Shown: piece by piece, positions 5,585 through 43,517 of the stretch | Layout of the letters: each line of letters opens with the position of its first letter | How positions within the stretch are numbered: position 1 is the first letter of the stretch | Virus genome (UHGV): UHGV-0179428 | DNA: 64,000 nucleotides | DNA from: a virus | Strand: one strand, 5' to 3' | Notes under the pieces: model-generated | What the model saw: the letters and a program-made list of their open reading frames with translations, nothing else | What the model was told of the DNA's origin: nothing | Databases searched by the model: none | Program-made: the position numbers and the translations under genes

Positions 5585-5597
5585 GGAGAATTTTTTG

Positions 5598-9779: not shown

Positions 9780-9873
9780 GACAGACTGCCTGCGGGCAGT
9801 TGTGTGTCCGTAGGTAACCCCTCCCTGTAATGGGGAGGGGTATCCATTTTATTTAAAAGTAGGAGTCTTTACG

Positions 9874-12800: not shown

Positions 12801-15060
12801 ACATCAAAAAACGGCTTATTTCATTGAAGCCGAATATGATAAAGATACGACTTATGGTTATCCTGGATACGGCGGGTTTGGACCAACATCCCGCCGTGTT
12901 GAAAAAAAAGCGAACGAATACGGCGTATTGACAAATATACCGCTGGTTGTTACGCCAGACATACCGAAAGGTCTACTAGATGGGGCTTACTTTATCGGTG
13001 CTGAAAGTAAACCATGTAAAGTTGTTTACGGTACCACTACGGTGGCTAGTGATCGGTTGTCTATCGATGCGGCAGAATGGGCGAAGTTGACTAATATTGT
13101 TCAGTCCAGCCAGTTCTCTGGGGCTTCTAACGGCAACGCCTATGAGCGGATTAGCGTAGCTAAGACCAAAAAGAACAACTACAGTTTGTCCTTTTGGGTG
13201 CTTGGTCAAACGATGTCTGGTGGTCCGCTTTGTATCGCGATAGTGAGTCTTATCTATAAAGACACTGACGGGGTAAATAAGTTTGCTTTTTACTTCTTTC
13301 AGGTAAAACCGACTATAACCAACGGGGTCATAAGGTTCGTTAGTTCGGAAGCGAGAATGATGACGTTCAGGGAAAAAGTGGCCAGTAACGCCATTAATCT
13401 CTCACCCACAGCTTTTAATGGTGAACTTAAACAACGCTCCGGTCAAGTTTTCCTTTATTCGCAAGACGGACAAAAGTTCAGATTCTCAATACATAACCTG
13501 GTTGGCGGGAATCTTGTAGGATCAGAGATTTCTTTTGCTTTTGGGATAAACTTGACTAAAAAAGGAGAATGGTTTACCGGCGAAATTCATCGGGCGTGGG
13601 GCTATACGTATACGCTGAATAATACATCTGAAGTCTATATACCCGATCTCTCGGGCATCGCGCTATTGACTTGTAACTCGGAAGATTTAAACGAGTTGTA
13701 TCTCGGTGGCGAACAGTATAGAATCTCTGATTTGTTTAACAAAAAATATACTGTTATCGATAAGATTATTATTGGCGGCGTACAAACACAGAGCGGTTGG
13801 AATTTCTATCTGACGGAGGAAACCGAGTTAAGTTTTGGAAATAAAAGATATACCGTTCCAAGATGGTCCGTTGATTTAAGCGATGAATTCCCGACTAATC
13901 ACGCTAACCAGACATTCTACGTTTATGCTGAAGTGGTCGGTTCTACTGCCCAATACCGCATCGGTTTAGAGCAGTTAGCTGATACCTCGTCGAGACTGTT
14001 TGTTGGGACAGTAACCACTGATTCGAACCGTATTACGGATATCAGTATCGATAAAGTAAAACGGTTAGGTCGTGTAAAAGAGCTGGAAAATCATGCCTCG
14101 GTTGTTGATCAGCACGATGTGGCGCAGGCGTTCGACAGGAAAACTGGTCCACTATTAACAGTGGTTAATAAACCCGTTAAAGCCATTACAGCATCTGCGA
14201 GCAAGGGTGCTGGGTATGTCGATGGTCAGAAATGGAATACGTTGTCCGGGATTGCAACGCGGCCCAGGTTGCCGGTACAGGAAACCTATTCAGGTTATAA
14301 AAGTATCAGCAGGGTGGCGTATGAGAACTGCGCTGACCAGTTCTGGCAGAAAGCGGTTGCTGCGAACGTTGCAGCGGCTACTGCTTCTGAGAACAAACAA
14401 GCAGCAACCGCGAACATGAAGTGGTTGGGTGCGTATACGAAACCGACTACCGGCGAGTATGCATATCTGGCATTGAGTCTGCGTGTTAAAGTACCTGGCG
14501 ATCCTGGTACTACTAATCGTCGACTGAAAATCAGGCTTGCGGCCCCGACAGGTATAACTCAAGTTCGTTACGGGCTAAATCAGTCTGGCGGTACGATGAC
14601 TGAACAGACAGTAACATTAACTGCTAACAGCTATCTGGAAAAAGAACACGCCGGATTTAAGCCAGCCGAAGAAGTCCGTGTACATGCTACGTTTGTCATT
14701 CCAAAAAATGAATACGATAGCTACCGTACGAAGTTCGGTGCTGTTCAGCTGATTGACGTTGAGTCGAACACTGTCATTAAACAGACAGATATCGACACAC
14801 CGTTTATCGTGTATACCGACACGGAGTTAGCAGCACAATCTGGTTTGGTGTATAAAGCGGTTAAGGGTCAGTTCCATCAACTCCCGTCTCAACCTGTCGT
14901 CATTGTAACTGATGGACAGACAGGGACTACGCCACCGGTGAAAACCTCGTTTGCTGACGGGACATTAACGGTCTACGTGGCAACCACGTACGACGCGGTG
15001 AATCCAGCACAAACGCGCGATATCGATAAGCTCCAGTTCAATCTTATGTTTACATCTTAA
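9874..15060 (+). CDS. giant tail fibre protein (1728 aa)
   Basis: AGGAG RBS; shared N-terminal module (GPFYRIGL...GLDYYL); fibre motif KADFGIDKMNNTTPIAKPV and HTHTTADLDNVP. Confidence 0.85.
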   Translation: MPREDAAQFNGTLSTVTYPNRFNVVIPPEGPFYRIGLKLTVADDTAPNGRRTLIEGLDYYLGYYFKELAEAEQDQIYGGFMLLTATEIEYEILGVARQYRVPQSEIGKFLVRTDLKDPRNVDWSELMAYAPVIQPIDPPANLEEAILRDEVVKALNDIRKKIIQRSTELDAAFTEVTNLIYENGKKIFDEELYQHHLNPNAHQYTTNDVGALPVLGRAVDATKAFGLTIDQLATLMGSAGIEQSDVEQLMGEALGTVYGRWGTTNGNELTFKTPGGHIISIRGDKWLITSPQPLVIKADQDNNESGLAVEFSAGLNTLWVHSGSEQDVLAPVYNSVYLVTPEMVNMYLTSVTLLEANAYFKSSDTVKPYGTAKQSNPLTLNANIPTATESVYGVFSITNIATSVALGTAISQKAVTELKNRLDLYVDDSYTVNGKGFVKTGDNMVLTLTKADFGIDKMNNTTPIAKPVTKALANVLKNKSLKVHTHTTADLDNVPIGSATVDGILQLWDAIDTTNDKAVTSRQGWLFAKEIKKVSDKLNTLLPAWTTAGSKYTNNSILPILSMGNYEGYGKNMDALQMVIGVQQGKLYALISSKSALPGTEGIYYAVAGLKNDKSLGEIYKTTFRYKPKGLETNYPGVELKEITVTGTEAFIAKGSDDNYYLVKLNGSMDYTKHTDVRLVTFSEFVSETTWEFVPNMFMDRVVIADNGVYVLRTMLMADLKNNSLVDYIKDTPQPMFRVGLLRLNKTDRFEQVDLSSTRKIGKCADLVEPGAFDVDNPNTKRLAYFTAEGKALWTVNLQLTRGVSRWITPVVKDGHLLTVGVSGVCLGFSSTKGTTFGPWNGAYRLDLLTGEVGLETTNIFPIKIDTTGCYLKDGTKIELKWKWATRSSGYMTDNRICVGDMVYSCCCSTEKQLAPSLHYQKLPEGVSYLDYVKLSAGYEGQSTFENRINPVVGSVWKPSMTFPLFFPGTNKVWLKHQKTAYFIEAEYDKDTTYGYPGYGGFGPTSRRVEKKANEYGVLTNIPLVVTPDIPKGLLDGAYFIGAESKPCKVVYGTTTVASDRLSIDAAEWAKLTNIVQSSQFSGASNGNAYERISVAKTKKNNYSLSFWVLGQTMSGGPLCIAIVSLIYKDTDGVNKFAFYFFQVKPTITNGVIRFVSSEARMMTFREKVASNAINLSPTAFNGELKQRSGQVFLYSQDGQKFRFSIHNLVGGNLVGSEISFAFGINLTKKGEWFTGEIHRAWGYTYTLNNTSEVYIPDLSGIALLTCNSEDLNELYLGGEQYRISDLFNKKYTVIDKIIIGGVQTQSGWNFYLTEETELSFGNKRYTVPRWSVDLSDEFPTNHANQTFYVYAEVVGSTAQYRIGLEQLADTSSRLFVGTVTTDSNRITDISIDKVKRLGRVKELENHASVVDQHDVAQAFDRKTGPLLTVVNKPVKAITASASKGAGYVDGQKWNTLSGIATRPRLPVQETYSGYKSISRVAYENCADQFWQKAVAANVAAATASENKQAATANMKWLGAYTKPTTGEYAYLALSLRVKVPGDPGTTNRRLKIRLAAPTGITQVRYGLNQSGGTMTEQTVTLTANSYLEKEHAGFKPAEEVRVHATFVIPKNEYDSYRTKFGAVQLIDVESNTVIKQTDIDTPFIVYTDTELAAQSGLVYKAVKGQFHQLPSQPVVIVTDGQTGTTPPVKTSFADGTLTVYVATTYDAVNPAQTRDIDKLQFNLMFTS

Positions 15061-15100
15061 CGCCACGAGACAAGGACGTCTCGGATTAAGGAGAGTGGCC

Positions 15101-16300
15101 ATGGCCTCCATTGTATACCAATACCCTTTAGATTTAACGGGAAGCCTAACCTCTAACGCCGTGGAGCGTCAGGTTACGTTAGGTACAGGTAAAGTTAACC
15201 GTGCGTTTGCTTTTCCTGATGGACCGTTTTATGCCGATACGTTCCGCTTGCGGGTTGCCAACCGACCCGATGCGACGTATGAGCGCGGAACGGACTATGA
15301 GTTGATTTTTGCACATCCGGCTTACGAGAAATTGACGAAGAACCGGGAAGTGGTAATGGCGGTTGTTGTAACGAACACCGCCATTCCGACCGATATCACG
15401 GTATCGGCGCAAGTAGTCGGGGGTCCGCAGTCTGCAAACGTGACTGCGATAGAACAGGCGATTGCTGAGTTGAATCTCGATAATCGAACTGTCGGCTTTA
15501 AAGACTTGCGAAATGTTCCTGATACATTTCCGTCAGCACCAACGTATAAAGACGTCGGTGATATTTACGGTTTCGAATATATCATTACAGTGCTCGCTGG
15601 CATTAAAGATGCGATAACGGCGGGCGATGCTGTACAGCTTGAGAACATCAAAGCGATTCTCGAAAGCCTGAAAAACGATTTCCTGGACGCGCTGAACGCA
15701 CACATTAACGCCACGGGTAACGTCCACCATCTGGATATTCACCAGGTTAACGGGTTAACAGAAACGGAGATCCGTGCACTTATCCGTGATGTACAGTCTG
15801 CCATCGATGCAACCATTACCGATATTAATGCGTTGAAGAAAGCAGATGAAGCGTTAGGAAAACGTATTGATGCTGTTGTCAAATCTTTGGAAGCGTGGAA
15901 CGACCAACTTAACATCGTTGCACAAAACTACCAGAAAATGGCATTGGCATTGGCGAACCTAAATTCGTTAGTGTTACAGTTACAGAAAAATATCAACGAT
16001 CTGAACACCAAACTCAACCAAGCGATTCAGCGCATTGCTGCGTTAGAACAGCGGGGTAATGAGTCCGATCAGAAAATTGATAATCTGCAACAAAACCTGG
16101 ATGCGCTTAAACAACAGGTTGCGAATAACACGAACGCAATCAGTCAGGCGAATCAGAACCTACAAAACCATATTGCGGCAGATAACCCACACACGGGCTA
16201 TCTCCACAAGAAATACGGTGGTGTGGTTCAGGCTCCAGTGCACGTTAACGCTAACTTGACGTCCCGTGATGACGTTCAGGCAGAAGCGGGTACGAAATAA
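15101..16300 (+). CDS. coiled-coil fibre/needle-like structural protein (about 399 aa)
   Basis: ATG at 15101 after AAGGAGAG (track start 15095 is GTG); shared N-terminal module (GPFYADTFRL...GTDYELIF); long heptad-like Q/N/L-rich coiled-coil region. Confidence 0.8.
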   Translation: MASIVYQYPLDLTGSLTSNAVERQVTLGTGKVNRAFAFPDGPFYADTFRLRVANRPDATYERGTDYELIFAHPAYEKLTKNREVVMAVVVTNTAIPTDITVSAQVVGGPQSANVTAIEQAIAELNLDNRTVGFKDLRNVPDTFPSAPTYKDVGDIYGFEYIITVLAGIKDAITAGDAVQLENIKAILESLKNDFLDALNAHINATGNVHHLDIHQVNGLTETEIRALIRDVQSAIDATITDINALKKADEALGKRIDAVVKSLEAWNDQLNIVAQNYQKMALALANLNSLVLQLQKNINDLNTKLNQAIQRIAALEQRGNESDQKIDNLQQNLDALKQQVANNTNAISQANQNLQNHIAADNPHTGYLHKKYGGVVQAPVHVNANLTSRDDVQAEAGTK

Positions 16301-17381: not shown

Positions 17382-17530
17382 CTAAGCCCTCCAGTGGTAG
17401 TATGTCTATTACGCAATAACCGAGTTAATTGTACGGGTTTACTACTGAGTTTCAAGTCACCGGTAGGCAATGGCGCGGTGGTTTCTATACCCTGAATGTC
17501 CGTTTGACCGTGAAATAATTGGAGCAATCA

Positions 17531-18418
17531 ATGAAGAATGATTTACATTTAGCGTACAAAACAATTTTCAATCATCCACTTCACATTTCTTCCCCTGATT
17601 CCGTACGTGCACACTTAGCAGATGAAGTTCGTCTGCTGACTCAGTTGCCGGGCGAATGGCCTAAAGTGCGCGGACGTTTCTTTACCGATCGTAAAAACTA
17701 TCGTGTAGAAAATACGTTTAAGATTCGTGATCTGACGGCAGAAAGTGTAGTGGTCTTTACCGGTGACTCCGAGTTGCGTGGTAAACTGGTTGCGGGTAAA
17801 TATTTCTTTAGTGACGGGATTTTGAATAACTCCGTAGATATGGAATTGTTCTTTACCCCATTTGAAGAAATGGGCGCAAAACCGGTTGCCCGTCGTTGGT
17901 GGTCACCGGATTACTTAGGCTCGTTCCCGTATTTCTTTACCCTGGTAACACCAGAAACGAAGAACTATTTCGATACGGAATCGTATATCGAAATTGAAGG
18001 GTACGAAGCGTTAGGGATTAATTGCTTAGCGGATTTAATGGCGTATAGCTATAAGTTCGTGTGGGATCGTGAACGTTCCGTGTGGGTTGCCCTGACGGAT
18101 GAACACGAAATCACAAAACGCATCCGTAAGCCTTGGATGCAGCATTTGATTCAAACGCGTATTGGCGAGCATCCGTCAACAGAAGCGGATCTGGCAAAAC
18201 TCGTTAGTTTCTTAATGACGAAAGTCACGTTAACTGACGAAGAGAAAGCAGCAGTGTCGGCGGTGTTGGACCGTAACGTAACGTTAGCGGATTTAGAACG
18301 TTTAAATGTCCGTTATAAAGACCTTAACCGTGTTTTGGAAGCGTATAACTCTCCATTTTTGTTAACCCCTGGTGCTAACGTAGACGACGATCCTTTGTTC
18401 GCCATTGATTATATTTAA
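17531..18418 (+). CDS. hypothetical protein (296 aa) inside the Cys-peptide/radical SAM locus
   Basis: ATG at 17531 seven nt after GGAG (track start 17519 is TTG); no recognisable motif; sits between the precursors and the radical SAM genes. Confidence 0.75.
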   Translation: MKNDLHLAYKTIFNHPLHISSPDSVRAHLADEVRLLTQLPGEWPKVRGRFFTDRKNYRVENTFKIRDLTAESVVVFTGDSELRGKLVAGKYFFSDGILNNSVDMELFFTPFEEMGAKPVARRWWSPDYLGSFPYFFTLVTPETKNYFDTESYIEIEGYEALGINCLADLMAYSYKFVWDRERSVWVALTDEHEITKRIRKPWMQHLIQTRIGEHPSTEADLAKLVSFLMTKVTLTDEEKAAVSAVLDRNVTLADLERLNVRYKDLNRVLEAYNSPFLLTPGANVDDDPLFAIDYI

Positions 18419-18439
18419 AAACGACCGGAGTCACCTGCA

Positions 18440-19363
18440 ATGACAACCAATGCAGAACCAAGGTTATCGAATCGTTTATACGATAAACCCACCGTATTGT
18501 CCGTAGTCGCTACGTCCAAGTGTAACCTGGATTGTAGCTTCTGCGGTGGAGCCTATTACATGAATCGTGAAGATTCTCCGCGAGAGTTTCAACGTGAGCG
18601 AATTTTGGAAGCGCTGGAAGCTAATCCAACCATTACCGAAATTCAGTGGACGGGTGGTGAGCCATTACTGGCAACCCGTAAAATTGAGGCGTTTGTTGAC
18701 GAATTAAAAGTGATTCGTCCAGAACTCAAACACCAGTTGTATACCAATGGCTTAAAGATGCGTAAATCGCATCTCCCGTTGCTAAAACAGTTTGACAATG
18801 TCTACGTTAGCATCGATGGGTTTAAGTCGTCTGAGCGCCCGTTTATGCGCTTTATTGACGAAGGCTGTTACGAAGCACTGGAAACGATCTACGAGCTGGA
18901 TAATGTCCAGACTTGGGGTGTCCTGACACGGGACCGTTTAGGGGACAAACGCTGGCACGAAGATATTATTCAGCTGCACAGCGCGATTTACCATTACGGT
19001 TTCCGTGCAATGACGTTACTCTTAGATGCGAAAATGCCAAAACCTTTATCGCCTGACCACGTCATGAACTTTATTTACGGCTACTATCAGGTTCAGGACA
19101 ACATTGAACGGCTGAATGTAGTAAATAGTCGTGAATGCGGCTTTACGGTAAGTAAAGTGTTTGAAGAAGGGTGTAACGTTTGCAGCGAAAGTCTTTGGAT
19201 TAATGCAGACGGTGGTGAGCACCAACTCCAGAATGCACCTAACGTTCTGGAATCGGGATGTAACCAACTGGCCTTCTCTATCGGTGTAGAGGCGTACGAA
19301 TATATTCGTCGTGTGGTGATGGCAGGGCGTAATAGAGGGGCGGCAAATGAGTCAAGTAAATGA
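18440..19363 (+). CDS. radical SAM enzyme (307 aa)
   Basis: CNLDCSFCGG (CxxxCxxC) near the N-terminus, GGEPLL glycine-rich motif, VSIDGFKSSERP segment, additional C-terminal cysteines (CGF...CNVC...GC). Confidence 0.8.
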   Translation: MTTNAEPRLSNRLYDKPTVLSVVATSKCNLDCSFCGGAYYMNREDSPREFQRERILEALEANPTITEIQWTGGEPLLATRKIEAFVDELKVIRPELKHQLYTNGLKMRKSHLPLLKQFDNVYVSIDGFKSSERPFMRFIDEGCYEALETIYELDNVQTWGVLTRDRLGDKRWHEDIIQLHSAIYHYGFRAMTLLLDAKMPKPLSPDHVMNFIYGYYQVQDNIERLNVVNSRECGFTVSKVFEEGCNVCSESLWINADGGEHQLQNAPNVLESGCNQLAFSIGVEAYEYIRRVVMAGRNRGAANESSK

Positions 19364-20669
19364 ATTCCCTAAGCAGTTAACGTATCAGATCGTAACCAAC
19401 CTTTCGTGTAACCTGGACTGCGAATATTGTTACGAACGTAAGTACCCGCGTAACAACAAAGCGGCTGACATTGTTGATTTCTTACACGCCTGTTTTGAAC
19501 GTGATAAAAACGAACCGAATGTTGAAGTTATTATCGACATTATCGGTGGTGAACCGTTCATGCAGCCTAAACTGCTGTTGGCTGCGTTTGAAACCGCTGA
19601 GCAGTTGTGTAAAGAACACAACCGACCGTTTATGTTTAGTATCTCCACGAACGGAACGCTGTTAGATCGTCCGTTGAACCGTGAGATTGTAGAACGTTGG
19701 AAAGATAAACTTTCGGTTGGGGTTTCGATTGATGGCTTACCTGAATCCCATGACCGTTATCGTATCTTCACAACAACACGCCAGGGTTCTTACGAAGCCG
19801 CAGTACGTGGCTATAACTACTTAAAAGAGGTTGGCATTGCAGAGCTCGGCGTAAAAGCAACCTTTACGTTAGAAACGCTGCCGTTCTATGCTGCGGGGAT
19901 GAAGTCATTAATTGACATTACTGGCGGTGGGACAATTTCTGGAAACGTAACTTTCGAAGACGTTATGCCACGTAGCATGGCGACGTCAATCGCTTTACAG
20001 ATGATGGATGTGATAGATTACTGGGTTGAGAAAGGATTACACACCAACCCACGTAATATCCTATCGCATATCATTCCAGAAGGGTTGGATTTCGACACGA
20101 TTTGGGAACCGAACTGGCGTGACCAGTTACTGTATAATGACACCGTACGGTTGAACCCGGAACGCTTACGTCCGTTCTGTGGGACGTTAACGCACATGAC
20201 GTGCTTAGGGTTTGACCGTAAGATCTTTGGCTGTAACCGCTTTATGTCAACGGTAACGTCGCGTTCTGCGGTGTTTGAGTTGGTAGGTCGGGAATTCGTC
20301 AGTCTGGACAACGGTAAATTGTTAGAAGAGATTCAAACGCAATATACCAACTACCCAGAGACCTGTTTAGGTTGTCCGATGAAACACGCTTGTGGTAGCT
20401 GCGCAGCGGCTTCTTACGAGAACGGGGAAGGAACGTTAGAAGACCGTAAAGCGTATCACGCTGAACGACGTCAGTGTGGCTGGACGACAGCGAAACTGAT
20501 GGTGGCGGAATACTGGAAACAGAAGATGGGTACGACGTCAGCAAAAGCGTTCCACGACACGAGTATGTGTTATTGCCCACGCTGTGTTCGTGAACGTGCC
20601 CAAAAGGAAAAATTATTAAGAGAAGCCAAAGATGAAACCAATTCTGATCAACAATATTACGAAGCGTAG
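19347..20669 (+). CDS. radical SAM enzyme with SPASM-like C-terminal Cys cluster (440 aa), anSME/peptide-maturase-like
   Basis: CNLDCEYCY (CxxxCxxC), GGEPF, SIDGLPESHDRYR, C-terminal CLGCPMKHACGSC plus further cysteines; overlaps the previous gene by 17 nt. Confidence 0.8.
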   Translation: MSQVNEFPKQLTYQIVTNLSCNLDCEYCYERKYPRNNKAADIVDFLHACFERDKNEPNVEVIIDIIGGEPFMQPKLLLAAFETAEQLCKEHNRPFMFSISTNGTLLDRPLNREIVERWKDKLSVGVSIDGLPESHDRYRIFTTTRQGSYEAAVRGYNYLKEVGIAELGVKATFTLETLPFYAAGMKSLIDITGGGTISGNVTFEDVMPRSMATSIALQMMDVIDYWVEKGLHTNPRNILSHIIPEGLDFDTIWEPNWRDQLLYNDTVRLNPERLRPFCGTLTHMTCLGFDRKIFGCNRFMSTVTSRSAVFELVGREFVSLDNGKLLEEIQTQYTNYPETCLGCPMKHACGSCAAASYENGEGTLEDRKAYHAERRQCGWTTAKLMVAEYWKQKMGTTSAKAFHDTSMCYCPRCVRERAQKEKLLREAKDETNSDQQYYEA

Positions 20670-23060: not shown

Positions 23061-23125
23061 TATCTTAGATCCTTAATAATACGTTTTAAAGAAATATCGG
23101 GGGAGGACACCCCCCCCCGATTCAA

Positions 23126-26333: not shown

Positions 26334-26810
26334 TTATTTCTTCTTAGCGCGTGATGGCTTAGCTGGCGGTGTTTCAACAGTCGGTTTACGCGCAACACGC
26401 ACTGTAAAACCACCGACCCAGGTTAGGCACTCAGGACGGAAGAAAATGCCGTGCTCGATTGCACTGCCGTCCAGCGGTAACTCACCAACCTGCTCTACCC
26501 ATACGTCGTCTTCAGTAAGGGTTAAGCCATACTGCTCGTTAATTACAGGCAACAGGTCCGCAGTCGTGGTTGCTGTCTCAACTAACAGTTTCGGCAATAC
26601 GTTGAGGAAATACAAACCTGCATCGATACGATTATACTGGAACGTTTGCTTATTAGCATAACCGAGATTCTTAACCGCCACAACCGTAATTTCGGTGTTG
26701 TACGCACCGGTACTTACGACGGGCTCACCCAATGTAACTTTGGCGGTGTCAAGCTCAGCGTCTGGGTTAGCCTTTTTAATAAGGTCGAAGATAGTTTCTT
26801 GACTGGTCAT
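26334..26810 (-). CDS. ELDGFT-family-related protein (158 aa)
   Basis: N-terminus ETIFDLIKKANPDAELDTAKVTLGEP resembles the family N-terminus; basic C-terminal tail. Confidence 0.65.
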   Translation of the reverse strand: MTSQETIFDLIKKANPDAELDTAKVTLGEPVVSTGAYNTEITVVAVKNLGYANKQTFQYNRIDAGLYFLNVLPKLLVETATTTADLLPVINEQYGLTLTEDDVWVEQVGELPLDGSAIEHGIFFRPECLTWVGGFTVRVARKPTVETPPAKPSRAKKK

Positions 26811-26823
26811 TACTGTAATCCTC

Positions 26824-27672
26824 TTAATCTAAGAATCCCGGTAAGACCGAATTAGTTTTAGCTAATTCAATCTTCGACTTCGGACGATCGGTTCCGTTAA
26901 AGTGGATTAACAGATTACCGGTCAGGTTAGCACACAGTCCACTGAGTGCGAGTACCAGCACACGCGTGTACTTCGTATTTGCGCCTTCGTAACCTGCGGT
27001 AGGGCCATCGTACATAACCTTGGCACCGTAGAGGTTATTAGCAGCGTTTTTAGGTACGCTTACCCATTTCTCATCAACGACGTTAACCAGTTTAGTGGCT
27101 AACTCAGCCAGGTCGACAGTGTCGTTAATGGTAATCGGATCGAGGTAATCTTTTTCTGCGGTGAAGTCAATTGGATAAGAATAAACCGCTGCGTTACCTT
27201 TCTTAGTGGACGGATACTCTACCAGGTTTTCTAATTGAGTAACAGGTAACAGTTTAGCCAGATCAATAGGATCGCGTAGCGTAAGTGTCACCTCGCCACA
27301 CCATTCGTAGGATTTCTCATTAGCGGTAAACTGATGGGTTTCACCTTCAACTTTCGCATCAATGATATCCGACGGCAGGATATTTAAATCGTATTTTGCG
27401 TTGATTGCATTAAGCAAATCTGCAGCGGTTACAACACCATCGTTACCGAATACCAACTCACCTGTTAGGTATTCGGGCAAGTTACGACGATGATAAGTCA
27501 CAGTTAAAGTAGTAGACTCATCGCCTTTGAGTTTAGAAGTCAGAACCACCTGGGTATCAACCCCAGTACCAGTAGGTTCGCCGATATCAACATCACTGAA
27601 GGTCAATGGCGGAACAATATTGTTTTCAGTGTTGATGAGTTTTAGCAGTTTCTGTTTTGACGTAAGAGACAT
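26824..27672 (-). CDS. ELDGFT-family-related protein (282 aa)
   Basis: N-terminus KLLKLINTENNIVPPLTFSDVDIGEP, C-terminal SVLPGFLD. Confidence 0.7.
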   Translation of the reverse strand: MSLTSKQKLLKLINTENNIVPPLTFSDVDIGEPTGTGVDTQVVLTSKLKGDESTTLTVTYHRRNLPEYLTGELVFGNDGVVTAADLLNAINAKYDLNILPSDIIDAKVEGETHQFTANEKSYEWCGEVTLTLRDPIDLAKLLPVTQLENLVEYPSTKKGNAAVYSYPIDFTAEKDYLDPITINDTVDLAELATKLVNVVDEKWVSVPKNAANNLYGAKVMYDGPTAGYEGANTKYTRVLVLALSGLCANLTGNLLIHFNGTDRPKSKIELAKTNSVLPGFLD

Positions 27673-35663: not shown

Positions 35664-35697
35664 AGGTAGTAGGGGCTAAGCCCCTACTACCTAAAAA

Positions 35698-36318
35698 TTA
35701 CTTCATTCCGTTCTGAGAAAGTGTTGTCCCTGCAAGATGTTTAATAACGATCTTAACAGGTAAATTACCATTCTCGTACTGTACTTCGGTTTCAGACAAA
35801 TCGTCGATATTGATAACTTTAGAGGGTACCTTCGCTAAAACAACACGAATGGTGTGGGTTATTGTACTGGCTGTAGTTTTTGTATTACTAACGTAGAAAT
35901 ACGCATCAATAATACTACCATCCGCTGCCAGGTAAACCAATTTATTTTCCAACAGGCACTGGCTATAAATTGACACTCCTGATAATTGCGAAACACCCAG
36001 CCTGTTGTTAACGTCAACCGTTGTTTTGCAGATTACCGCACCACCCGTCAACGTTTTTTCTACTACCATATTTCCCGATAAGGTTTTTGCATCTATTTTT
36101 GGTACTACCGGATGAGCACCATTAACAAATAACCCATCGTTATTAGACTTAAGGATGTTATTCGCCGACGGACTCACTGTAACCTCAGTACCCCCTAATT
36201 TCTCAATCGGGAGTTGGTATTCAGTTTGTTCCTTAGACGCTAAGACTACTACACCCGTGACGTCTTCTGAAAGTGTCGGCAGTTCGTGAACGCGTACCTT
36301 TCCTACCAGTTCAGTCAT
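35698..36318 (-). CDS. short fibre-like protein (206 aa) sharing its N-terminal module with the long tail fibre
   Basis: MTELVGKVRVHELPTLSEDVTGVVVLASKEQTEYQLPIEKL aligns with the fibre N-terminus MAKAVKKIRLHDLRPYTGDIGEGVLLFSKDEKDYKLPVREI. Confidence 0.7.
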   Translation of the reverse strand: MTELVGKVRVHELPTLSEDVTGVVVLASKEQTEYQLPIEKLGGTEVTVSPSANNILKSNNDGLFVNGAHPVVPKIDAKTLSGNMVVEKTLTGGAVICKTTVDVNNRLGVSQLSGVSIYSQCLLENKLVYLAADGSIIDAYFYVSNTKTTASTITHTIRVVLAKVPSKVINIDDLSETEVQYENGNLPVKIVIKHLAGTTLSQNGMK

Positions 36319-36833
36319 TGGCGACCTCCGAATGTTAAGGCACGGTTATCTGCAGTGACGATTAAATCGTTGTCTTTTACTACAGCGGCTTCTTCGTCGT
36401 TACCGAAAACCAGAACGGAGAATTGACCTTTATAACCTAACGAGTTGGGTGAAACCTGTAATGTTACAGTGTCTCTCCCTACGGTAAATGGTTCGTCGGT
36501 AAGATCTTCGGCTTGTAAATTGCAACCACAAGCCGCGTTAATTCCGTCGATTAGATCGTGTGCGGTAAAGCCATTACCGAAAACCTTTACCAGAATAGGC
36601 TGCTGGTTTAACCACCGCTCTGCGGTTAAACGGTTGTAATAGATCTGTAACGTTCTGTTGCCAGGACGTTTGATCTTTACAACAGCGGTAGTATCACGAT
36701 CCATTTCATCGCTGATCTTTACTTCGCTGATTTCAACCTCATTCTCTTGCAGATTGAGCTGAAGGTCGTGGTTGATCAGCGAAATAACCATGTTAGGTGA
36801 GGTTAGCGACAAATCTGGCACGAATTGTCCCAT
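36315..36833 (-). CDS. hypothetical protein (about 172 aa), paralog of 42865-43431
   Basis: Probable start ATG 36833 (MGQFVPDLSLTSP); conserved VPDLSL, LINHD and CG.NLQ(A/P)EDL segments shared with the paralog. Confidence 0.65.
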   Translation of the reverse strand: MGQFVPDLSLTSPNMVISLINHDLQLNLQENEVEISEVKISDEMDRDTTAVVKIKRPGNRTLQIYYNRLTAERWLNQQPILVKVFGNGFTAHDLIDGINAACGCNLQAEDLTDEPFTVGRDTVTLQVSPNSLGYKGQFSVLVFGNDEEAAVVKDNDLIVTADNRALTFGGRQ

Positions 36834-36921
36834 AAGCTTACTCTCTACGGTTGGGGGATAAAATGATTCTAGCAATATTTTATCCCCGATTATATTTTCA
36901 AGCGCATTCAGTTGAAAATAA

Positions 36922-37425
36922 TTAGCTAATTCTCAAATCACGCAGCGCGCCTGTTGATTTCATCACGTTTTGGAACGCAGCGCTGATGTTATTAGTCCAG
37001 TAATAATGCTGTCCGTTAATAACCTGCTGATAGGTCAGCGCGCAGGTGTTGCCACCTAAATTTACGGTAATGTTAGAGCCTCTGCCTCCTTGTAAGTAAA
37101 CCGCTAAAGTAGGCTTTGCGTTGGCAACTATCGTTGTTAACTGTAACTCAATACCTACTAAAGTTCCCACCCCGCAGTTACCCGCGTTTTGAATGGTTCC
37201 CTGATTTTTCTGGTTTAACGGCCAGCTTGGTCCTACTGCGCCCCATTTCTTACCTAAAGAATCGCTATATGCAGCGGTTGCAATTTTACAGCCCATAGAT
37301 CGTCCCACCATTTGACTCATCATAAAAGGTCTACCCAATCCTAATTTACTACCAGCGGCGCTCATCCATTGTTCGCCCGTTTCGTTCTTGGCCGAAGAAC
37401 CGACCCATCCAGATGCTACCCCCAT
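36922..37425 (-). CDS. gp38-like adhesin paralog (167 aa) lacking the poly-Gly region
   Basis: N-terminus MGVASGWVGSSAKNETGEQWMS parallels the T-even gp38 attachment domain; C-terminus divergent. Confidence 0.6.
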   Translation of the reverse strand: MGVASGWVGSSAKNETGEQWMSAAGSKLGLGRPFMMSQMVGRSMGCKIATAAYSDSLGKKWGAVGPSWPLNQKNQGTIQNAGNCGVGTLVGIELQLTTIVANAKPTLAVYLQGGRGSNITVNLGGNTCALTYQQVINGQHYYWTNNISAAFQNVMKSTGALRDLRIS

Positions 37426-37441
37426 CTACCCTCTTTTTTAA

Positions 37442-38224
37442 TTAAACACGTGAACCGTATATTGCACCTACTGCGTCCCATCTTGGCGCATTACCAGTAA
37501 CAGCTTTACCAGCTGCTCCGCCGTTATATTCTGTACCGTTACCTTGAGTATTACATCTTCCTCCAGCAGCACCGACATTACCACCCGAACCGCCTGTATA
37601 TGCACTAAGAGACCCCTCACCAACAGATCCTCTACCAGGAGCGGAAATAGTACCAGCAGCTGCACCGGAACTCATATGAGAGGAAGACCCACCAGCACCG
37701 AATGGGCGACCACCGCCACCACCAAATATTAGTCTACCCCTGTTACCGCCACCACCGCCGCCACCGCCTCCGGCAATAGCGCCACGGTTGGTTATACGCA
37801 GTCTGTTTCCTATTCCGTTCTGTATTGCGGTTCCACCTGCACCGCCTGGTGAGTTAGAACCGCCGTTGCCTCCTCTGCCGTATACTGTAACCCCAGGATT
37901 GATGATGAGGGTAATATACGAATTTGGAAGATTGCTAGGGAATTCTAAACAAGGAACCGTGCTACTATGGGACACTAAATCCCCCGTAATAGTCACAACG
38001 ACAGCAGTAGAGCCTAAAGAACGTAAATAGTTAATAAGCGTATCTTTATTGTAATTGTGATTAGCCCCGATCGAATACTGAACCTCTTTTGATTTTCCCG
38101 CCAATTGCGACATCCAGCCTGGAACCGGCACACCAAGTGTGCGCATCGCGCCAGACATCCATTCGTTACCAGCTTCAGCTTTTGCTGAAGAACCAATCCA
38201 ACCACCTACGCCGACAACTGCCAT
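37442..38224 (-). CDS. T-even gp38-like tail-fibre adhesin with glycine-rich motifs (260 aa)
   Basis: N-terminus MAVVGVGGWIGSSAKAEAGNEWMS and multiple poly-Gly blocks (GGGGGGGGG, FGGGGGRPFGAGG, AAGKAVTGNAPRWDAVGAIYGSRV), recalled from memory as gp38-like; immediately downstream of the tail-fibre gene. Confidence 0.7.
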   Translation of the reverse strand: MAVVGVGGWIGSSAKAEAGNEWMSGAMRTLGVPVPGWMSQLAGKSKEVQYSIGANHNYNKDTLINYLRSLGSTAVVVTITGDLVSHSSTVPCLEFPSNLPNSYITLIINPGVTVYGRGGNGGSNSPGGAGGTAIQNGIGNRLRITNRGAIAGGGGGGGGGNRGRLIFGGGGGRPFGAGGSSSHMSSGAAAGTISAPGRGSVGEGSLSAYTGGSGGNVGAAGGRCNTQGNGTEYNGGAAGKAVTGNAPRWDAVGAIYGSRV

Positions 38225-41200
38225 TAGGATCTTCCTTTAATTTCGTTAACCTCTTGACGCAACGCTTTCATACCCTCTACTAACAGCGCAATAACGCCAT
38301 TGTAGTTTAGACGTAAACGTTTTTCGCCTGAAATGGCATCATCATCCTCAGACACAAGTTCAGGTAACGCTTCTAATGCGTCCTGAGCAATTAGACCTAC
38401 AGAAGTCTGCCAGCCGTCATCAGGATGCTGAATTTCGTACAAATAACCGGTTAGTAACTCTAACCGATCCAAAGCTTTATCCAGCTTCACCAGATTACGT
38501 TTGTTACGACGGTCAGAACGAATCTGTACGTCGTTAAACGAACCGTTACCGTTGCCAGTAACGTTATGTCCAAAGTTTACTTGGCCGTTAGAATTATTAA
38601 AAGACAACGGGCGTAATCCGTTCCAGGAACCCGCTGCGGCTTGTCCGGCGTCGGTTACTAAGAAATAGGTATTGGCACCGTCGTTACGTAAAATAAAACC
38701 GTAGGTACCGTAAGCGATTCGAAAATCAGGGTATTTAGTGGCCAATTTACCGTTAACGGTTAAATCGCCGCCTATAGTACCGCCCCCCGAAGGTAGTGCA
38801 CCCACTTCTGCAGCAGTTGGCTTGTTTCTCGTATTGTAAGCACGACGCCAGCCTGGTGAGTATGTATCGCCGTTAAATACGTAGATAAACTCCGCATTAG
38901 TGAGTGCGCCACCGACGCTCGCCGTTGTGGCAGTCGTTATACGGATCGTGTAGTTGTTTGTGCTATTACCGTTACTAATCACTTCTATAACGGCCCCAGC
39001 TAACGGAATAACACCACAACCCGTCTCGCTGTGTGGTATGGACGCACTAGCGGCATAAGCCCATGCACAGCGAGCAACCCACGATCTTGTGGTAAATGCG
39101 CCGTTATTTTTCAATAACGTCACTAGCTGTGCTGTAGTTATTGCGCCGCCATCTTTGCCAGTTTCTAACCAACCACTAGGCGATGCCGGACAACCTATAT
39201 CGGCAGGTCCTAACGATATATTTCTAGTGCCGTCAAATGCGATACCGTTAATGGTTCTTGCGGTTTGCAACTTTGTTGCCGTGGCTGCGTTTCCGGTGGT
39301 CGCCTGATTACCTGTTTGGTTTACTCCAGGTAAACTGATGTCTTTAGTACCATCAAAAGCTACACCACCTATATTTCGCGCAGTCTGGAGCTTAGTCGCT
39401 GTCGCCGCATTCCCCGTAGTCGATTGGTTACCGGTTTGGTTTACGCCAGGAAGATTAACGTCTTTTGTCCCATCGAAAAGCACACCGCCGATCTTACGTG
39501 CGGTTTGTAACTTAGTAGCGGTCGCTGCATTACCTGTCGTATTCTGGTTGCCTTGCTGGTTAACGCCCGGTAAATTGATATCACCTGTACCGTCAAAGGT
39601 AACGCCTCCGATCCTGCGAGCGGTTTTCAGTTTCGTCGCGGTAGCGGCGTTGCCGGTAGTATCTTGATTACCGGTGGCATTTACGCCAGGAATGCTGTCA
39701 CGGGCAGTATAAACTTGTGCCCAATCTGACCACGGCGCATCAGCCGTATCACGTCGACTACGAATATAAACTGGCGCGTGCGCACCACTCGTCCCCGACC
39801 ATCCGATTAACAGCTCGCCTTCACCTAGCGCAGTAGAACCACCCAAATGCAATAAGTTACCATAAGCGGTTGGATAACCGTTATTGTAAACTTCGTACAT
39901 CTGAATACCGGGTGTACCTTTGTTTGATCCAGTCAGTGCAGTAACACGTCCACGTCCTACCAACGTGTTGATATTGATGTCTCTAGACCCATCAAATTTC
40001 ACACCGTTGATGTTTCGAGCCGTTTGTAATTTGGTTGCGGTTCCCGCGTTCCCAGAGGTGTTTTGATTACCCTGTTGGTTCACACCAGGGAGGCTAATGT
40101 CGCCGCTACCGTCGAAACTTACACCGCCGATTAAACGGGCTGTTTTCAGTTTTGTTGCCGTTGACGCATTACCTGTCAATTCGCCCGATAACCCTTTTGC
40201 AAAGGTCTGTTTTTCTGCCCACGTATGCGCTGCATTCAATACGGGCATCTGGCGGCTAGTAATAGTACGTTTACCCTTTTCACCAGCGACGCGAACAGCA
40301 AAGAAGCGATAGTTAGCAGTAGACACTGTACCACGCCAGACCAACATACTCCGGCCAGTACCGGTGTCCTCCGACGCCCCTACAAGAATAGTGACCAAGT
40401 TACCGTCGATAACACCCCAATCCATTCCCGCAGGAATGTTTTTCATGGTATTCAACGGTGTACTTATCATCTGGCCAGGAACGAAGTCGAATGTTTGCCA
40501 GTCTAACGGATCGACCTTAGCAGCAACCCCACCGATCCCTAAAGTCAGCGGGAGTGAATAGGATGTGAAAATCTCTCGCCATTCGCTCCAGGCGTTTCCT
40601 GTACGAATTCGTTGGAACTTGCGACCTTTCGAAGTTGCGCCTGTACCGTATGTGGTATAATTTTGTTCAACACCTGAACCGTCTAAGCGTAAGGTAACTT
40701 CGCAAACGCCTAGCAAGGTTGCGCCAGCAGAGTCTGTTAACGGACTGTCTGTAGCCTCACCGGTAACACTAAAGCGACCTGGTTTAGTTAAGTCGTTAAA
40801 GCTACCCTTATAGTAGGCACCGTCTACCTGATACCCAACCTGAATCCAATCTTCCCACTGCGGATTAGACGAATCCCAAGTCGCAGTCAAACCACGGACA
40901 TACATCGTACCATGTCGTGTGGTGTATCGTTGCAACCGTCCGTAAAGACCACCTTCCATGACTTCTAATACGCCTTGCGCATTACCGCCCTCTTCAGGAT
41001 AATGTCTGTCGAACACCGCTAACGAACTGGACGAGTTACGCCAGTTACCCATGTGCTCAGCGCCGCCTAAGGAGTTCAGATCGATCGATGTAGATAACGG
41101 GCGTACACCGGTAGTTACCATTCTCCACGGTGACCACGGGCCATTAGTTCCGTTCCACGCACCTGACAACATACGGTTGTACACGTTACCATTACGGCAG

Positions 41201-42666
41201 GTAAAACGTTGCGCTCCACTGTAGTTGCCCGCTTTATACACTTCCAGATAACCGACTGCACCGTCTTCTGGGAAGTGTTTTGCCATCGACGCATTGGTTG
41301 ATGTCGACTTGGACCATGTTCCTGTGTAATTAGCATCTGGAGCAAATGTGTTAATATCAGCATCTACAGGCATTTCGCCACGGAAACGCAGATAGGTATC
41401 AGGAGATAGGCCGATATTGCGAGCAAAGGTTTCTTTATTGGGGATATCGGCACCGTTAGAATTTTTCTGTAATGCGCCGTTTGCTTTATCAACGGTGGGT
41501 TTCAAACCCAGGAAGTTAATGATATCCGCAGTTGACCCTTTCGCTAACAAGGATCTGGCAGTTTCTGTAAAATCGGTTAACTCGACTTTATTAGAGCCCG
41601 TGAAATACAGGAGTTTGTTTGCTGCACTTGTAACCGCAGCGATTGCGGTGAGTAACGGACTGAGAGGTTGTTTCTGAGCAAGCTCCTCAGTGATCGTTGT
41701 TGCGAAGTTAGGGTCATTACCTAACGCCTCTGCTAATTCCGCTAAGGTATTTAACGTCTCGGGTGAGGAACCAACCAATTCAGCAATCGCGTCACGCACC
41801 CAGGACGTTGTGGAGATGCTCGTGTCATTCGAGTCCTTCGGCGGTTTTGGTGTTGTCGGTTTACCCGTAAAATTCGGCGAATGTTTATTGGCTTTTAACT
41901 GTAATTCGTCGTTCAGCTGTTTAACAGTGGACGGCGTGGCAGCCTCCGTCACGGATTCGCTAGTCAGGGTATCGTTAAGTTTAACAATACCTTTACCGGT
42001 TGTAGTAGCGTCAACTAAGCCTTGGGCGGCGATTTTCTCCGCACGTAGGGCAGCTGACTCCGAACGCGTAGCTGCCCCTTCTGAGCTTTCTTTATCTTTC
42101 GCGACCTGTGCAGCAATCTTCTCCACTGCACCTTTACTGGCCTCAACTGAAGCCGCAGTATTTTCAACGCTGGTAGCCGCCTGTTGAACTTGTCCGGCCT
42201 GTTGCGTAACCGTTTCTGCTTTCTTAGTTACATCAGCCGCCGTAGCCGTCACAGATTGTTCGGATGTGGCGACAGCTTGAGCCTTCTCATTTACTGATTG
42301 TGAAACAGTATCTACGGCAGTTTTCGCTGCTAAAACCTCAGCGTGTTTTTTGTTAACCTCCGCAGTTTTAGTGGCAACGGTTCCCGCTTGCTCATTAACT
42401 GTGGAAGCTAACGTGTCAGTTTGTTGCTTCGCGGTTTCCGCTAAATTTTTTGCTTGCGCAGCTTCTGTTGCAGACTGTTGTGATTTGGCCGCAGCCGTTT
42501 GTGCATCAGCAACCGCGTTTCTGACGGTGTCAATGTCCGCAACGATTTCGCGGACGGGTAACTTATAATCTTTTTCGTCTTTCGAAAAAAGTAAAACGCC
42601 TTCGCCGATATCCCCGGTGTATGGACGCAAATCGTGTAAACGAATTTTCTTTACCGCTTTAGCCAT
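38224..42666 (-). CDS. long tail-fibre protein (about 1480 aa) with C-terminal intramolecular chaperone (peptidase S74-like) domain
   Basis: Start taken as ATG 42666 (MAKAVKKIRLHDL); about seven 37-aa repeats GNQ.TTGNAATATKLQTAR.IGGV.FDGT.DI.LPGVNQ; C-terminal segment SDRRNKRNLVKLDKALDRLELLTGYLYE...GLIAQDALEALPELV typical of self-cleaving chaperone domains. Confidence 0.85.
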   Translation of the reverse strand: MAKAVKKIRLHDLRPYTGDIGEGVLLFSKDEKDYKLPVREIVADIDTVRNAVADAQTAAAKSQQSATEAAQAKNLAETAKQQTDTLASTVNEQAGTVATKTAEVNKKHAEVLAAKTAVDTVSQSVNEKAQAVATSEQSVTATAADVTKKAETVTQQAGQVQQAATSVENTAASVEASKGAVEKIAAQVAKDKESSEGAATRSESAALRAEKIAAQGLVDATTTGKGIVKLNDTLTSESVTEAATPSTVKQLNDELQLKANKHSPNFTGKPTTPKPPKDSNDTSISTTSWVRDAIAELVGSSPETLNTLAELAEALGNDPNFATTITEELAQKQPLSPLLTAIAAVTSAANKLLYFTGSNKVELTDFTETARSLLAKGSTADIINFLGLKPTVDKANGALQKNSNGADIPNKETFARNIGLSPDTYLRFRGEMPVDADINTFAPDANYTGTWSKSTSTNASMAKHFPEDGAVGYLEVYKAGNYSGAQRFTCRNGNVYNRMLSGAWNGTNGPWSPWRMVTTGVRPLSTSIDLNSLGGAEHMGNWRNSSSSLAVFDRHYPEEGGNAQGVLEVMEGGLYGRLQRYTTRHGTMYVRGLTATWDSSNPQWEDWIQVGYQVDGAYYKGSFNDLTKPGRFSVTGEATDSPLTDSAGATLLGVCEVTLRLDGSGVEQNYTTYGTGATSKGRKFQRIRTGNAWSEWREIFTSYSLPLTLGIGGVAAKVDPLDWQTFDFVPGQMISTPLNTMKNIPAGMDWGVIDGNLVTILVGASEDTGTGRSMLVWRGTVSTANYRFFAVRVAGEKGKRTITSRQMPVLNAAHTWAEKQTFAKGLSGELTGNASTATKLKTARLIGGVSFDGSGDISLPGVNQQGNQNTSGNAGTATKLQTARNINGVKFDGSRDININTLVGRGRVTALTGSNKGTPGIQMYEVYNNGYPTAYGNLLHLGGSTALGEGELLIGWSGTSGAHAPVYIRSRRDTADAPWSDWAQVYTARDSIPGVNATGNQDTTGNAATATKLKTARRIGGVTFDGTGDINLPGVNQQGNQNTTGNAATATKLQTARKIGGVLFDGTKDVNLPGVNQTGNQSTTGNAATATKLQTARNIGGVAFDGTKDISLPGVNQTGNQATTGNAATATKLQTARTINGIAFDGTRNISLGPADIGCPASPSGWLETGKDGGAITTAQLVTLLKNNGAFTTRSWVARCAWAYAASASIPHSETGCGVIPLAGAVIEVISNGNSTNNYTIRITTATTASVGGALTNAEFIYVFNGDTYSPGWRRAYNTRNKPTAAEVGALPSGGGTIGGDLTVNGKLATKYPDFRIAYGTYGFILRNDGANTYFLVTDAGQAAAGSWNGLRPLSFNNSNGQVNFGHNVTGNGNGSFNDVQIRSDRRNKRNLVKLDKALDRLELLTGYLYEIQHPDDGWQTSVGLIAQDALEALPELVSEDDDAISGEKRLRLNYNGVIALLVEGMKALRQEVNEIKGRS
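39230..39700 (-). repeat. tandem about 108-111 bp coding repeats inside the tail-fibre gene
   Basis: Visible DNA-level periodicity corresponding to the 37-aa TATKLQTAR repeats; a second shorter block lies near 40010-40230. Confidence 0.55.
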
Positions 42667-42864
42667 GATATTTAATTCTCTATCTGGAGCTAAAAGATCT
42701 GGGAAGGTAAAACACCCCCCCAACATTTTTATAAGCGGACTATTATACTGGTTTTAATCCATCATCTTCTAACGTGAAAGTGATGTCCAATTCCGCGTTC
42801 TCATGATCTGGGTTTACTAAGTCTTGATAAAAGTTTGTTTTGGCCTCCGTTACCGGTAAAACCG

Positions 42865-43431
42865 TCAAGTTCCTGTAGCCGGGCTTTCCTCAGCTGTGTC
42901 GTCATCTGGAACCTCGAATGTAAGAACGGCTTCATCATCAATACAGAAGATTGCATCTTCTTCGTTTGCCAATGCCCGTTCGGTTGTATCAAATAACGTC
43001 ACCATAAACGCATTCATCCACGCAGGAGAATCGTCAGCAACGTTAACAGCAATGGGTTCGTTACCTAAGGTGATATCTGCAGCACGTAAATCTTCGGGTT
43101 GTAAGTTCGTTCCGCAGAATTCATTTACAACACCTAAAATGTCACGAAGGTTGTCTTCAGTACCGTCTAACGAAATCAAAATAGGTTCAGACGCTAACAC
43201 TTCGTCCGCATCCAAACGGTCGTAATAAACAACCACAGAAGCACCATCAGGTTTCCTGATTTTTGTAATCTCTGTCAGTGTGTTACGACGCGATGTGGTC
43301 GGGGACGGGTTTGCCATAGTGTTGCTAATACGGATTTCGTTTAGAGACAACCGTGAACCGTTATCGTGGTTGATTAAAGCGACCACCAATTCGGCTGAGG
43401 CCAGACTTAAATCAGGTACGTAAGTAGTCAC
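42865..43431 (-). CDS. hypothetical protein (about 188 aa), paralog of 36315-36833
   Basis: Probable GTG start at 43431 after GGGAGG (VTTYVPDLSLASA); conserved blocks shared with the paralog. Confidence 0.65.
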   Translation of the reverse strand: MTTYVPDLSLASAELVVALINHDNGSRLSLNEIRISNTMANPSPTTSRRNTLTEITKIRKPDGASVVVYYDRLDADEVLASEPILISLDGTEDNLRDILGVVNEFCGTNLQPEDLRAADITLGNEPIAVNVADDSPAWMNAFMVTLFDTTERALANEEDAIFCIDDEAVLTFEVPDDDTAEESPATGT

Positions 43432-43440
43432 TAAAACCTC

Positions 43441-43491
43441 CCAGATCAAAAAAAATAAAAACACCTACCGCCCATAGAATCGGGCGGTAGG
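43441..43491 (-). terminator. rho-independent terminator downstream of gene 43518-43892
   Basis: Hairpin CCTACCGCCC-GATTCTAT-GGGCGGTAGG followed on the minus strand by TGTTTTTATTTTTTTT. Confidence 0.7.
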
Positions 43492-43517
43492 CGGTCATTT
43501 TGCAGCTAAATATCAAA

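Follow-up and report, generated by a model that had tools for sequence, protein, structure and literature searches.

The 64-kb stretch of viral DNA analysed here (the window) comes from the UHGV virus genome UHGV-0179428, a genome of ~225 kb of which ~160 kb (~70%) lies outside the window. Positions 36,922 to 42,666 hold three closely packed genes on the minus strand, as are all features of the locus given below. The first encodes a mosaic tail fibre of 1480 amino acids (aa) at 38224..42666, counted from the second ATG of a maximal open reading frame (ORF) that reaches 42726; in sibling contigs the same gene is also called as 1480 aa. Two genes for gp38-type adhesins follow, a glycine-rich one of 260 aa (37442..38224) and a short one of 167 aa (36922..37425), referred to as gp38L and gp38S, respectively. 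The fibre stop codon overlaps the gp38L start (TAATG), and the 16-nt spacer between gp38L and gp38S contains a ribosome-binding site, AAGAGGG. We consider it reasonably likely that this locus is a self-cleaving fibre with a snap-on adhesin of the T2/S16 type, carried by a jumbo phage resembling SPN3US and Asesino and provided with two alternative adhesins. The T2/S16-type core of this explanation is near certain.

At its C-terminus, the fibre carries an intramolecular chaperone (IMC) of the Peptidase_S74 family (aa 1384-1480, 38227..38517; Pfam PF13884, 5.1e-10 over aa 1384-1438), and the solved structure of the S16 gp37 tip and IMC (6F45_A) aligns with the final 140 aa of the fibre (E 1e-13). 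In this alignment, the S16 cleavage site RDLNVS^SDRRIKK (the caret marks the cleaved bond) stands opposite NDVQIR^S1384-DRRN-K1389 of the fibre. Self-cleavage between R1383 and S1384, with K1389 as the partner residue, is predicted from this correspondence, and the piece released would comprise 97 aa. A serine nucleophile with a lysine five residues downstream is the dyad of the S74 family. In S16, self-cleavage removes the last 113 residues and exposes the Gp38 docking surface (PMC7917993), and exposure of a gp38 socket by IMC removal has likewise been described for T2 and T6 (bioRxiv 10.64898/2026.05.12.724579; PMC3157838). In phages of this design, each fibre is capped by a gp38 monomer (PMC9569957).

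The remainder of the fibre is composite. In addition to Peptidase_S74, Pfam detects Phage_fiber_2 (aa 221-261, 6.6e-10) and Gp34_trimer (aa 1256-1355, 1.9e-19), while tblastn gives a mosaic of matches to P1/P7 S, T-even gp37/gp34 and phage Cyrano. The N-terminal anchor (aa 1-50, 42517..42666) is of the SPN3US type, with 52% identity to the N-terminus of SPN3US gp143, and is followed by an Ala/Thr/Gln-rich segment (aa ~55-230) and a T-even gp37-like shaft (aa 417-925, 39892..41418) that matches aa 105-624 of gp37 of Tequatrovirus G9062 (47% identity, E 1e-146). A 40-aa repeat of the gp34/gp37 type (consensus GNxxTxGNAxTATKLxTARxIxGxxFDG) is present between aa 825 and 1160 (39187..40194) in six copies (2 + 4) as counted with a regular expression, and Tandem Repeats Finder reports a period of 120 nt. 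The distal domains (aa 1156-1383, 38518..39201) are P1/Mu S-like and Gp34_trimer-like and have matches to tail fibre protein S (8ju3, E 7e-30) and to 5yvq and 4uxe (~1e-15); they end in the docking strand GNGNGSFNDVQIR. The fibre joins an anchor of the SPN3US type to a shaft like that of gp37 and to distal domains like those of P1/Mu S, a mosaic that is mildly new.

gp38L matches Pfam GP38 (PF05268, 5.2e-70) and Gp38_N (PF21721, 5.2e-14) and is divided into a docking domain (38087-38224) and a receptor-binding domain (37445-38086). It is homologous to S16 gp38 over its whole length (6F45_D, E 1.4e-49) with all glycine-rich motifs (GRM) aligned, and in its C-terminal domain these motifs have hypervariable segments (HVS) between them. 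Over the part with the hypervariable receptor loops (aa 111-260), gp38L is ~90% identical to gp38 of the coliphages PaulHMueller and JSE and of the P1-like CMS-2020a; over the docking domain (aa 1-45), identity to the same proteins is just 44-62%, and a DNA search of the phage collection gave no match for the 5' end of the gene. This N-domain is lineage-specific: its segment SSAKAEAGNEW resembles SSAKNETGEQW of gp38S and has diverged from the coliphage gp38 pattern, which suggests that the two N-domains may be adapted to the same socket. PaulHMueller depends on OmpA (PMC8594841), and RB49-like gp38 proteins bind OmpA and certain O-antigens (PMC9569957). Because of these precedents, our best guess for the receptor of gp38L, by analogy, would be OmpA.

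gp38S consists of a docking domain (37294-37425) and a beta-rich C-terminal domain (36925-37293; AlphaFold2 (AF2) pLDDT 80-94). It matches Gp38_N (PF21721, 3.5e-20), with no other domain found in the Pfam scan, and phrog_1121, 'tail fiber adhesin' (2e-45), over aa 1-160. Both adhesins carry the Gp38_N core GW(I/V)GSS...W-M-S; they have ~38 N-terminal residues in common (55% identity, E 5e-10) and nothing beyond. A C-domain with glycine-rich motifs is absent from gp38S, and for the C-domain that it has, neither a solved fold nor a receptor-binding relative was found. In the locus classification it gave no match to the RB43-type C-domain, to which it is not homologous; in RB43, a non-glycine C-domain on a gp38 N-domain determines host range (PMC3157838). 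Over its full length, gp38S is 64% identical to a protein of CMS-2020a, 60% to proteins of the Shiga toxin (Stx) phages 75/02 and P13374, and 43% to PEi20 gp38b. In the Stx phage and P1-like phage-plasmid loci, the gp38S-type protein is the sole Gp38_N gene behind an IMC fibre and is therefore sufficient as the tip protein there. The fibre tip and IMC of the window are, in turn, 78% identical to the fibre C-terminus of Stx phage 75/02, which pairs with a gp38S-type protein. The gp38S family is very small, with ~5 clusters among 1.84 billion representatives, and we found no experimental paper on the subfamily. An identical gp38S protein is encoded by at least 11 metagenomic contigs, up to 223 kb in length, in which the gene order is kept, and relatives are present on IMG/VR contigs of ~151-225 kb and in a Salmonella Typhimurium sequencing run. 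T4 gp38 and the Mu/P2 Tfa chaperone were also considered as identities for gp38S and gp38L and were rejected, as Pfam gave Gp38_N/GP38 only and no chaperone family. Within the window, tblastn found no second IMC and no additional Gp38_N genes.

A preliminary description of this DNA, made from its letters alone, had reported the 1480-aa fibre with a C-terminal chaperone-like segment, a first gp38-like gene with poly-glycine motifs, and a second that is a paralog sharing only the attachment N-terminus. All of this stands: the homology to a chaperone domain is present, and the adhesin genes have the relationship that was described, with E-values well outside what chance would give. By contrast, the accompanying ideas that an IMC normally dispenses with a separate adhesin and that an IMC fibre with a gp38 tip is unusual are contradicted both by the literature, in which this is the standard T2/T6/RB49/S16 design, and by a survey of IMG/VR. 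In a scan seeded with gp38S relatives, 77 loci were collected, and each ORF in them was classed by its BLAST match to a reference set made up of N-domains, glycine-rich domains, C-domains of the short type and IMCs. A Gp38_N gene lies immediately behind an IMC-ending fibre in 75 of them, and the exceptions include a locus of the Krischvirus type, which is known for its displaced gp38. The same order is found in Stx 75/02, CMS-2020a, PEi20 and a Tequatrovirus, and the junction motif (G)NGxFNDV(Q/Y)IR^SDxxxK is near-invariant across the surveyed fibres. Thus, the conjunction of IMC and gp38 is textbook; what is mildly new is the jumbo host phage, the mosaic fibre and the presence of two heterotypic, exchanged adhesin slots.

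The carrier is a large enterobacterial, SPN3US/Asesino-like jumbo phage outside the Straboviridae. The flanks of the locus have ~73% nt identity to Erwinia phage pEa_SNUABM_29, Asesino and the Salmonella SPFM/SPN3US group. A DNA search of the region against the phage collection found relatives for gp38L only, with fibre and gp38S lacking a DNA-level match; among sequenced phages, gp38L is the one part of the window with close relatives at the DNA level. Two strong terminator-like hairpins, each with a 13-bp stem followed by a T-run, mark the upstream (43462..43493, 9 GC pairs) and downstream (35664..35692, 8 GC pairs) boundaries of one unit that comprises DUF7941a, fibre, gp38L, gp38S, DUF7941b and a 206-aa protein; a scan for sigma-70-type promoters gave no more matches than expected by chance. 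DUF7941a is a virion structural protein (42865..43464; Pfam DUF7941 1.1e-18, phrog_2935 1.4e-25) with 45% identity to SPN3US gp144, whose gene precedes the SPN3US tail fibre gene, and it is the probable adaptor and partner of the fibre. A DUF488-N3a gene lies upstream of both. The second copy, DUF7941b (36315..36875; Pfam DUF7941 5.6e-18), is 34% identical to the first. The short 206-aa protein (35698..36318) has an N-terminal anchor like those of the fibre (34% identity, E 1e-6) and of SPN3US gp143. The 206-aa ORF looks like a second exchangeable slot for a receptor-binding protein, such that each slot would have its own DUF7941 gene before it. Between DUF7941a and the fibre, tblastn weakly detects a putative relic (42752..42829) of the C-terminus of the SPN3US gp142-like 'tail protein' (gp142 aa 978-1003; 61.5% identity over 26 aa, E 2.5e-4); at this position a relative (L106, 1-1395) retains a full 1001-aa gene, and the relic may be a scar left by a deletion in the ancestral locus.

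In the mechanism that we propose, the fibre would be held at the baseplate by its SPN3US-type anchor, probably together with the DUF7941 protein encoded just upstream. The C-terminal Peptidase_S74 chaperone would aid trimerisation of the fibre and then cut itself off between R1383 and S1384, leaving a tip that ends in ...GNGSFNDVQIR. This exposed tip would form the socket for Gp38_N and, by analogy with S16 and RB49, would take up one monomer per fibre trimer. Homology supports the steps of trimerisation, chaperone removal and Gp38_N docking. Two plugs would be on offer, gp38L with its polyglycine sandwich and gp38S with its small beta domain, and most likely they would compete for the same tips, giving rise to a virion with mixed fibres and two receptor specificities. 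We propose competition for one socket because both proteins have intact plugs and the window contains one IMC fibre. The tip of this fibre is of the 'VQIR' subtype, the usual partner of gp38S-type N-domains, which also favours a shared socket. Even so, we regard the chances that both adhesins use one socket and yield mixed-tip virions as evenly balanced. That the pair confers alternative receptor specificities, as had been proposed, is plausible and draws indirect support from the exchange of cassettes, from the purifying selection on both genes and from their likeness to known adhesins.

Sibling phages provide the evidence for exchange. The two-slot layout is kept in sibling contigs of ~150-225 kb, and modules recombine at domain borders. 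In contig L018, 96% identity to the window extends over the fibre, gp38L and the docking part of gp38S; it ends exactly at the border between the N- and C-domains of gp38S (37273) and resumes past the gene (36887), and the C-domain swapped in is a different allele with 64% aa identity. In L014 and L017, the fibre tip and IMC are different (35% identity) and resemble the CMS-2020a tip that is paired with a long gp38; the N-terminus of gp38L is altered and both adhesins are retained. In an abundant sister lineage (L092-L105), the fibre is 93-96% identical to that of the window (measured in L092 and L093) and gp38S is kept with 97% identity, while the place of the 206-aa ORF is taken by a 706-aa SASA/DUF6645 protein with a fibre-type anchor (L092 9920-12040). 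The SASA domain of this protein is sialate O-acetylesterase-like. gp38L is 96% identical at the nucleotide level across contigs whose fibres share 70-86%, and dN/dS ratios of 0.08-0.5 for gp38L and gp38S indicate purifying selection on both.

Several observations weigh against two adhesins that work side by side on one fibre. To our knowledge, there is no phage for which two adhesins are known to compete for one tip. A further IMC fibre, served by one of the two adhesins, could be encoded in the ~160 kb of genome beyond the window. A lock-and-key pairing of tip and N-domain subtypes has been reported (Trojet et al., PMC3157838) and argues against any plug fitting any socket. Among the siblings, L015 is without gp38L, and its fibre is followed directly by gp38S (3358-3362). 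In L016 (6340-6978), gp38L has an in-frame deletion of 48 aa from the first to the third glycine-rich motif, probably caused by recombination between glycine-rich repeats. In L092-L105, gp38L is replaced by a short Gp38_N protein of 181 aa. Finally, gp38S is put out of frame by a poly-G tract in 7 of ten near-identical ~225-kb siblings, leaving a 124-aa ORF without Gp38_N.

Some of these points would be explained by a division of labour, in which one adhesin, probably gp38S, caps the fibre of the window and the other serves an IMC fibre encoded outside it. The lock-and-key pairing, the size of the unseen genome and the close relationship of the window tip and IMC to Stx tips paired with gp38S-type proteins all fit such a scheme, and tandem IMC fibres do exist in other phages, namely in RB43-like genomes (L064, L066-L070). 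We nevertheless consider it unlikely. The window holds a single IMC; both adhesin genes lie directly behind its fibre in one terminator-bounded unit, with gp38L overlapping the fibre stop; both accompany the fibre in all sibling contigs, save for the gp38L cases just listed; and the N-domain of gp38L is like that of gp38S in the SSAK..E.G.EW segment.

The losses and replacements in the siblings could instead mean that one gene is a cassette left over from recombination, either newly acquired or in decay, that plays no part in the virion, such that the phage in effect has a single adhesin. gp38L is missing, internally deleted or replaced by another type in the contigs named, gp38S is frameshifted in the seven siblings, and the high nucleotide identity of gp38L despite divergent fibres suggests recent spread. 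This, too, is improbable in our view, because in the window both ORFs are intact and each has a ribosome-binding site, dN/dS is well below 1 for both genes, the gp38S protein is found unchanged on at least 11 contigs, and two slots persist across divergent siblings, PEi20 and a P1-like contig.

A role of gp38S as an assembly factor for the fibre or for gp38L maturation, with no receptor binding, is very unlikely. Homologs are named 'distal long tail fiber assembly catalyst' in many database records, and the fold of the gp38S C-domain is without a known receptor-binding relative. However, Gp38_N is the domain by which a virion-bound adhesin docks (PMC7917993; PMC3157838), and the annotation is inherited from the unrelated T4 gp38, while the Pfam match of gp38S is to Gp38_N only. 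Moreover, Stx and P1-like phages have a fibre with no receptor-binding domain of its own and, behind it, a gp38S-type protein as the one candidate for the tip; the C-domain cassette is swapped exactly at the domain border; and the non-glycine C-domain of RB43 sets host range. Least probable of all, and close to dismissed, is the view in the preliminary description that the IMC makes the fibre self-sufficient and that gp38 tips make it an unusual hybrid of two separate strategies: some IMC fibres and spikes, such as endosialidases and T5 pb1, do bear their own receptor-binding domain, but in the literature and in our survey the combination of IMC and gp38 prevails among T-even designs, and the cleavage site and tip of the window fibre are homologous to those of S16 gp37, where cleavage makes the gp38 socket.

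The poly-G tract that affects gp38S in the siblings may be more interesting than the paired adhesins from which the analysis started. In L092-L105, it lies directly after the gp38S ATG (e.g. L096 2300-2312; the window equivalent is 37415-37425), and among the ten near-identical siblings its length varies from G8 (n=1) through G9 (n=3) and G10 (n=4) to G11 (n=2). The tract is G8 in L016 and, in the window and its closest relatives, a short G5 that keeps the gene in frame. Two homopolymer indels are the sole difference between L096 and L103. The variable tract could be a phase-variable on/off switch of the second adhesin or it could be a homopolymer assembly error. In the siblings, the intergenic spacer from gp38S to DUF7941b contains a second variable poly-G tract (G9-G11; L092 9341-9349, L095 9344-9354, L016 7536-7544), which sits in a promoter-like sequence of the TTGAAA... 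type; the window has only G4 at ~36880-36890. A G7 tract lies just upstream of the fibre start (window 42715-42721; G10 in L014), and an intergenic G5/C9 homopolymer pair that can form a hairpin is found at 23095-23118 of the window (GGGGGAGGACACCCCCCCCC). Homopolymers of G or C seem to recur between genes in this group of phages.

The sister lineage differs from the window in a further gene. In L092-L105, the 181-aa Gp38_N protein is followed by a 76-aa lipoprotein-like gene (L092 8557-8787), and a gene of this kind is also present in the P1-like contig L065 (7271-7516). In both lineages, the 76-81-aa gene (signal ...LLTVSGC / ...LTLSAC) accompanies the 181/185-aa Gp38_N type, and it is absent from the window. 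In T5, llp adjoins the gene for the receptor-binding protein. By analogy, the lipoprotein-like gene product could be a receptor-blocking superinfection-exclusion protein.

Returning to the proposed self-cleaving fibre with two alternative adhesins, the cassettes that fill the slots across the lineage are of the glycine-rich type, the 167-170-aa type and the 181-aa type accompanied by the lipoprotein. We can, therefore, tentatively speculate about a broader design, for which the odds are against us: a universal socket (...NGSFNDVQIR) with two slots for cassettes obtained by horizontal exchange, mixed tips and, in the siblings, on/off control of the second slot by a hypermutable poly-G tract would provide bet-hedging and a plug-and-play host range. 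If both adhesins load on the same tip, the Gp38_N socket would be a general docking standard in T-even-like and P1-like phages, Stx podoviruses and jumbo phages, and one fibre could present alternative, structurally unrelated receptor binders. Host range could then be engineered by swapping a small adhesin gene rather than the whole fibre, and the receptors of uncultured jumbo phages might become easier to predict. The receptor of the gp38S C-domain would be worth knowing in its own right, given that this narrow family is also present on the tail fibres of Shiga-toxin phages.

Elsewhere in the window, three giant paralogous virion structural proteins of 1440, 1394 and 1728 aa (phrog_7557, 8078 and 7449) are encoded at 1262-16300 (plus strand). 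They share a phrog_2163 N-terminal module with a 401-aa protein and are conserved with Erwinia phage pEa_SNUABM_29. A gene cluster at 17519-20669 (plus strand), which includes a radical-SAM domain protein (19347-20669, phrog_1802), is ~73% identical at the nucleotide level to Salmonella SPFM/SPN3US-like phages and is the best-conserved DNA in the window; the SPFM/SPN3US-like records annotate two radical-SAM proteins at the equivalent of this cluster. Two further DUF7941 paralogs of 282 and 158 aa lie at 26334-27672 (minus strand). The resulting four DUF7941 paralogs in the window suggest several adaptor/fibre sets.

Compared with known systems, the locus has two kinds of relatives. With SPN3US (gp144-gp143-gp142) and Asesino (gp139-gp141), it shares the order of DUF488, a DUF7941-like protein and then a protein with a ~50-aa anchor. 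However, these phages have a 'tail fiber' of ~155-156 aa (SPN3US gp143) and a 1000-aa 'tail protein' at the locus, and neither an IMC nor Gp38_N was found there (one marginal match, E 0.003, was disregarded). The homologous IMC cleavage site and the next gene, with Gp38_N and a glycine-rich receptor-binding domain, are shared with S16, T2, T6 and RB49 (6F45), and the modular build of N-terminal attachment domain and C-terminal specificity domain is that of T-even gp38 (PMC3157838). Unlike S16 and T2, in which the fibre is a gp34-35-36-37 chain, the fibre of the window consists of one 1480-aa chain that starts with the SPN3US-type anchor, its carrier is a ~225-kb jumbo phage, and a second, structurally unrelated Gp38_N adhesin is added. 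In Stx 75/02, P13374 and CMS-2020a, the short gp38 is normally the sole Gp38_N gene, while it is the second of two in the window. RB43 gp38 is a functional analogue of gp38S with a non-homologous C-domain. The T4-like contigs L064 and L066-L070 (176-180 kb), with two tandem IMC fibres followed by one short Gp38_N protein of 174-176 aa, are the converse of the window, i.e. two sockets and one plug. Literature searches for gp38 in jumbo phages, or for gp38 genes in pairs, yielded nothing relevant. Among genomes, by contrast, two Gp38_N genes behind one IMC fibre are present, as in the window, in PEi20/PEi26, Klebsiella phage KLB31 and the P1-like contig L065. PEi20 differs in that both its gp38 genes are of the short type; L065 has a short and a glycine-rich type, as does the window, but with ~1.4 kb and three small genes between them. 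Thus, two Gp38_N genes behind one fibre are a recurrent arrangement.

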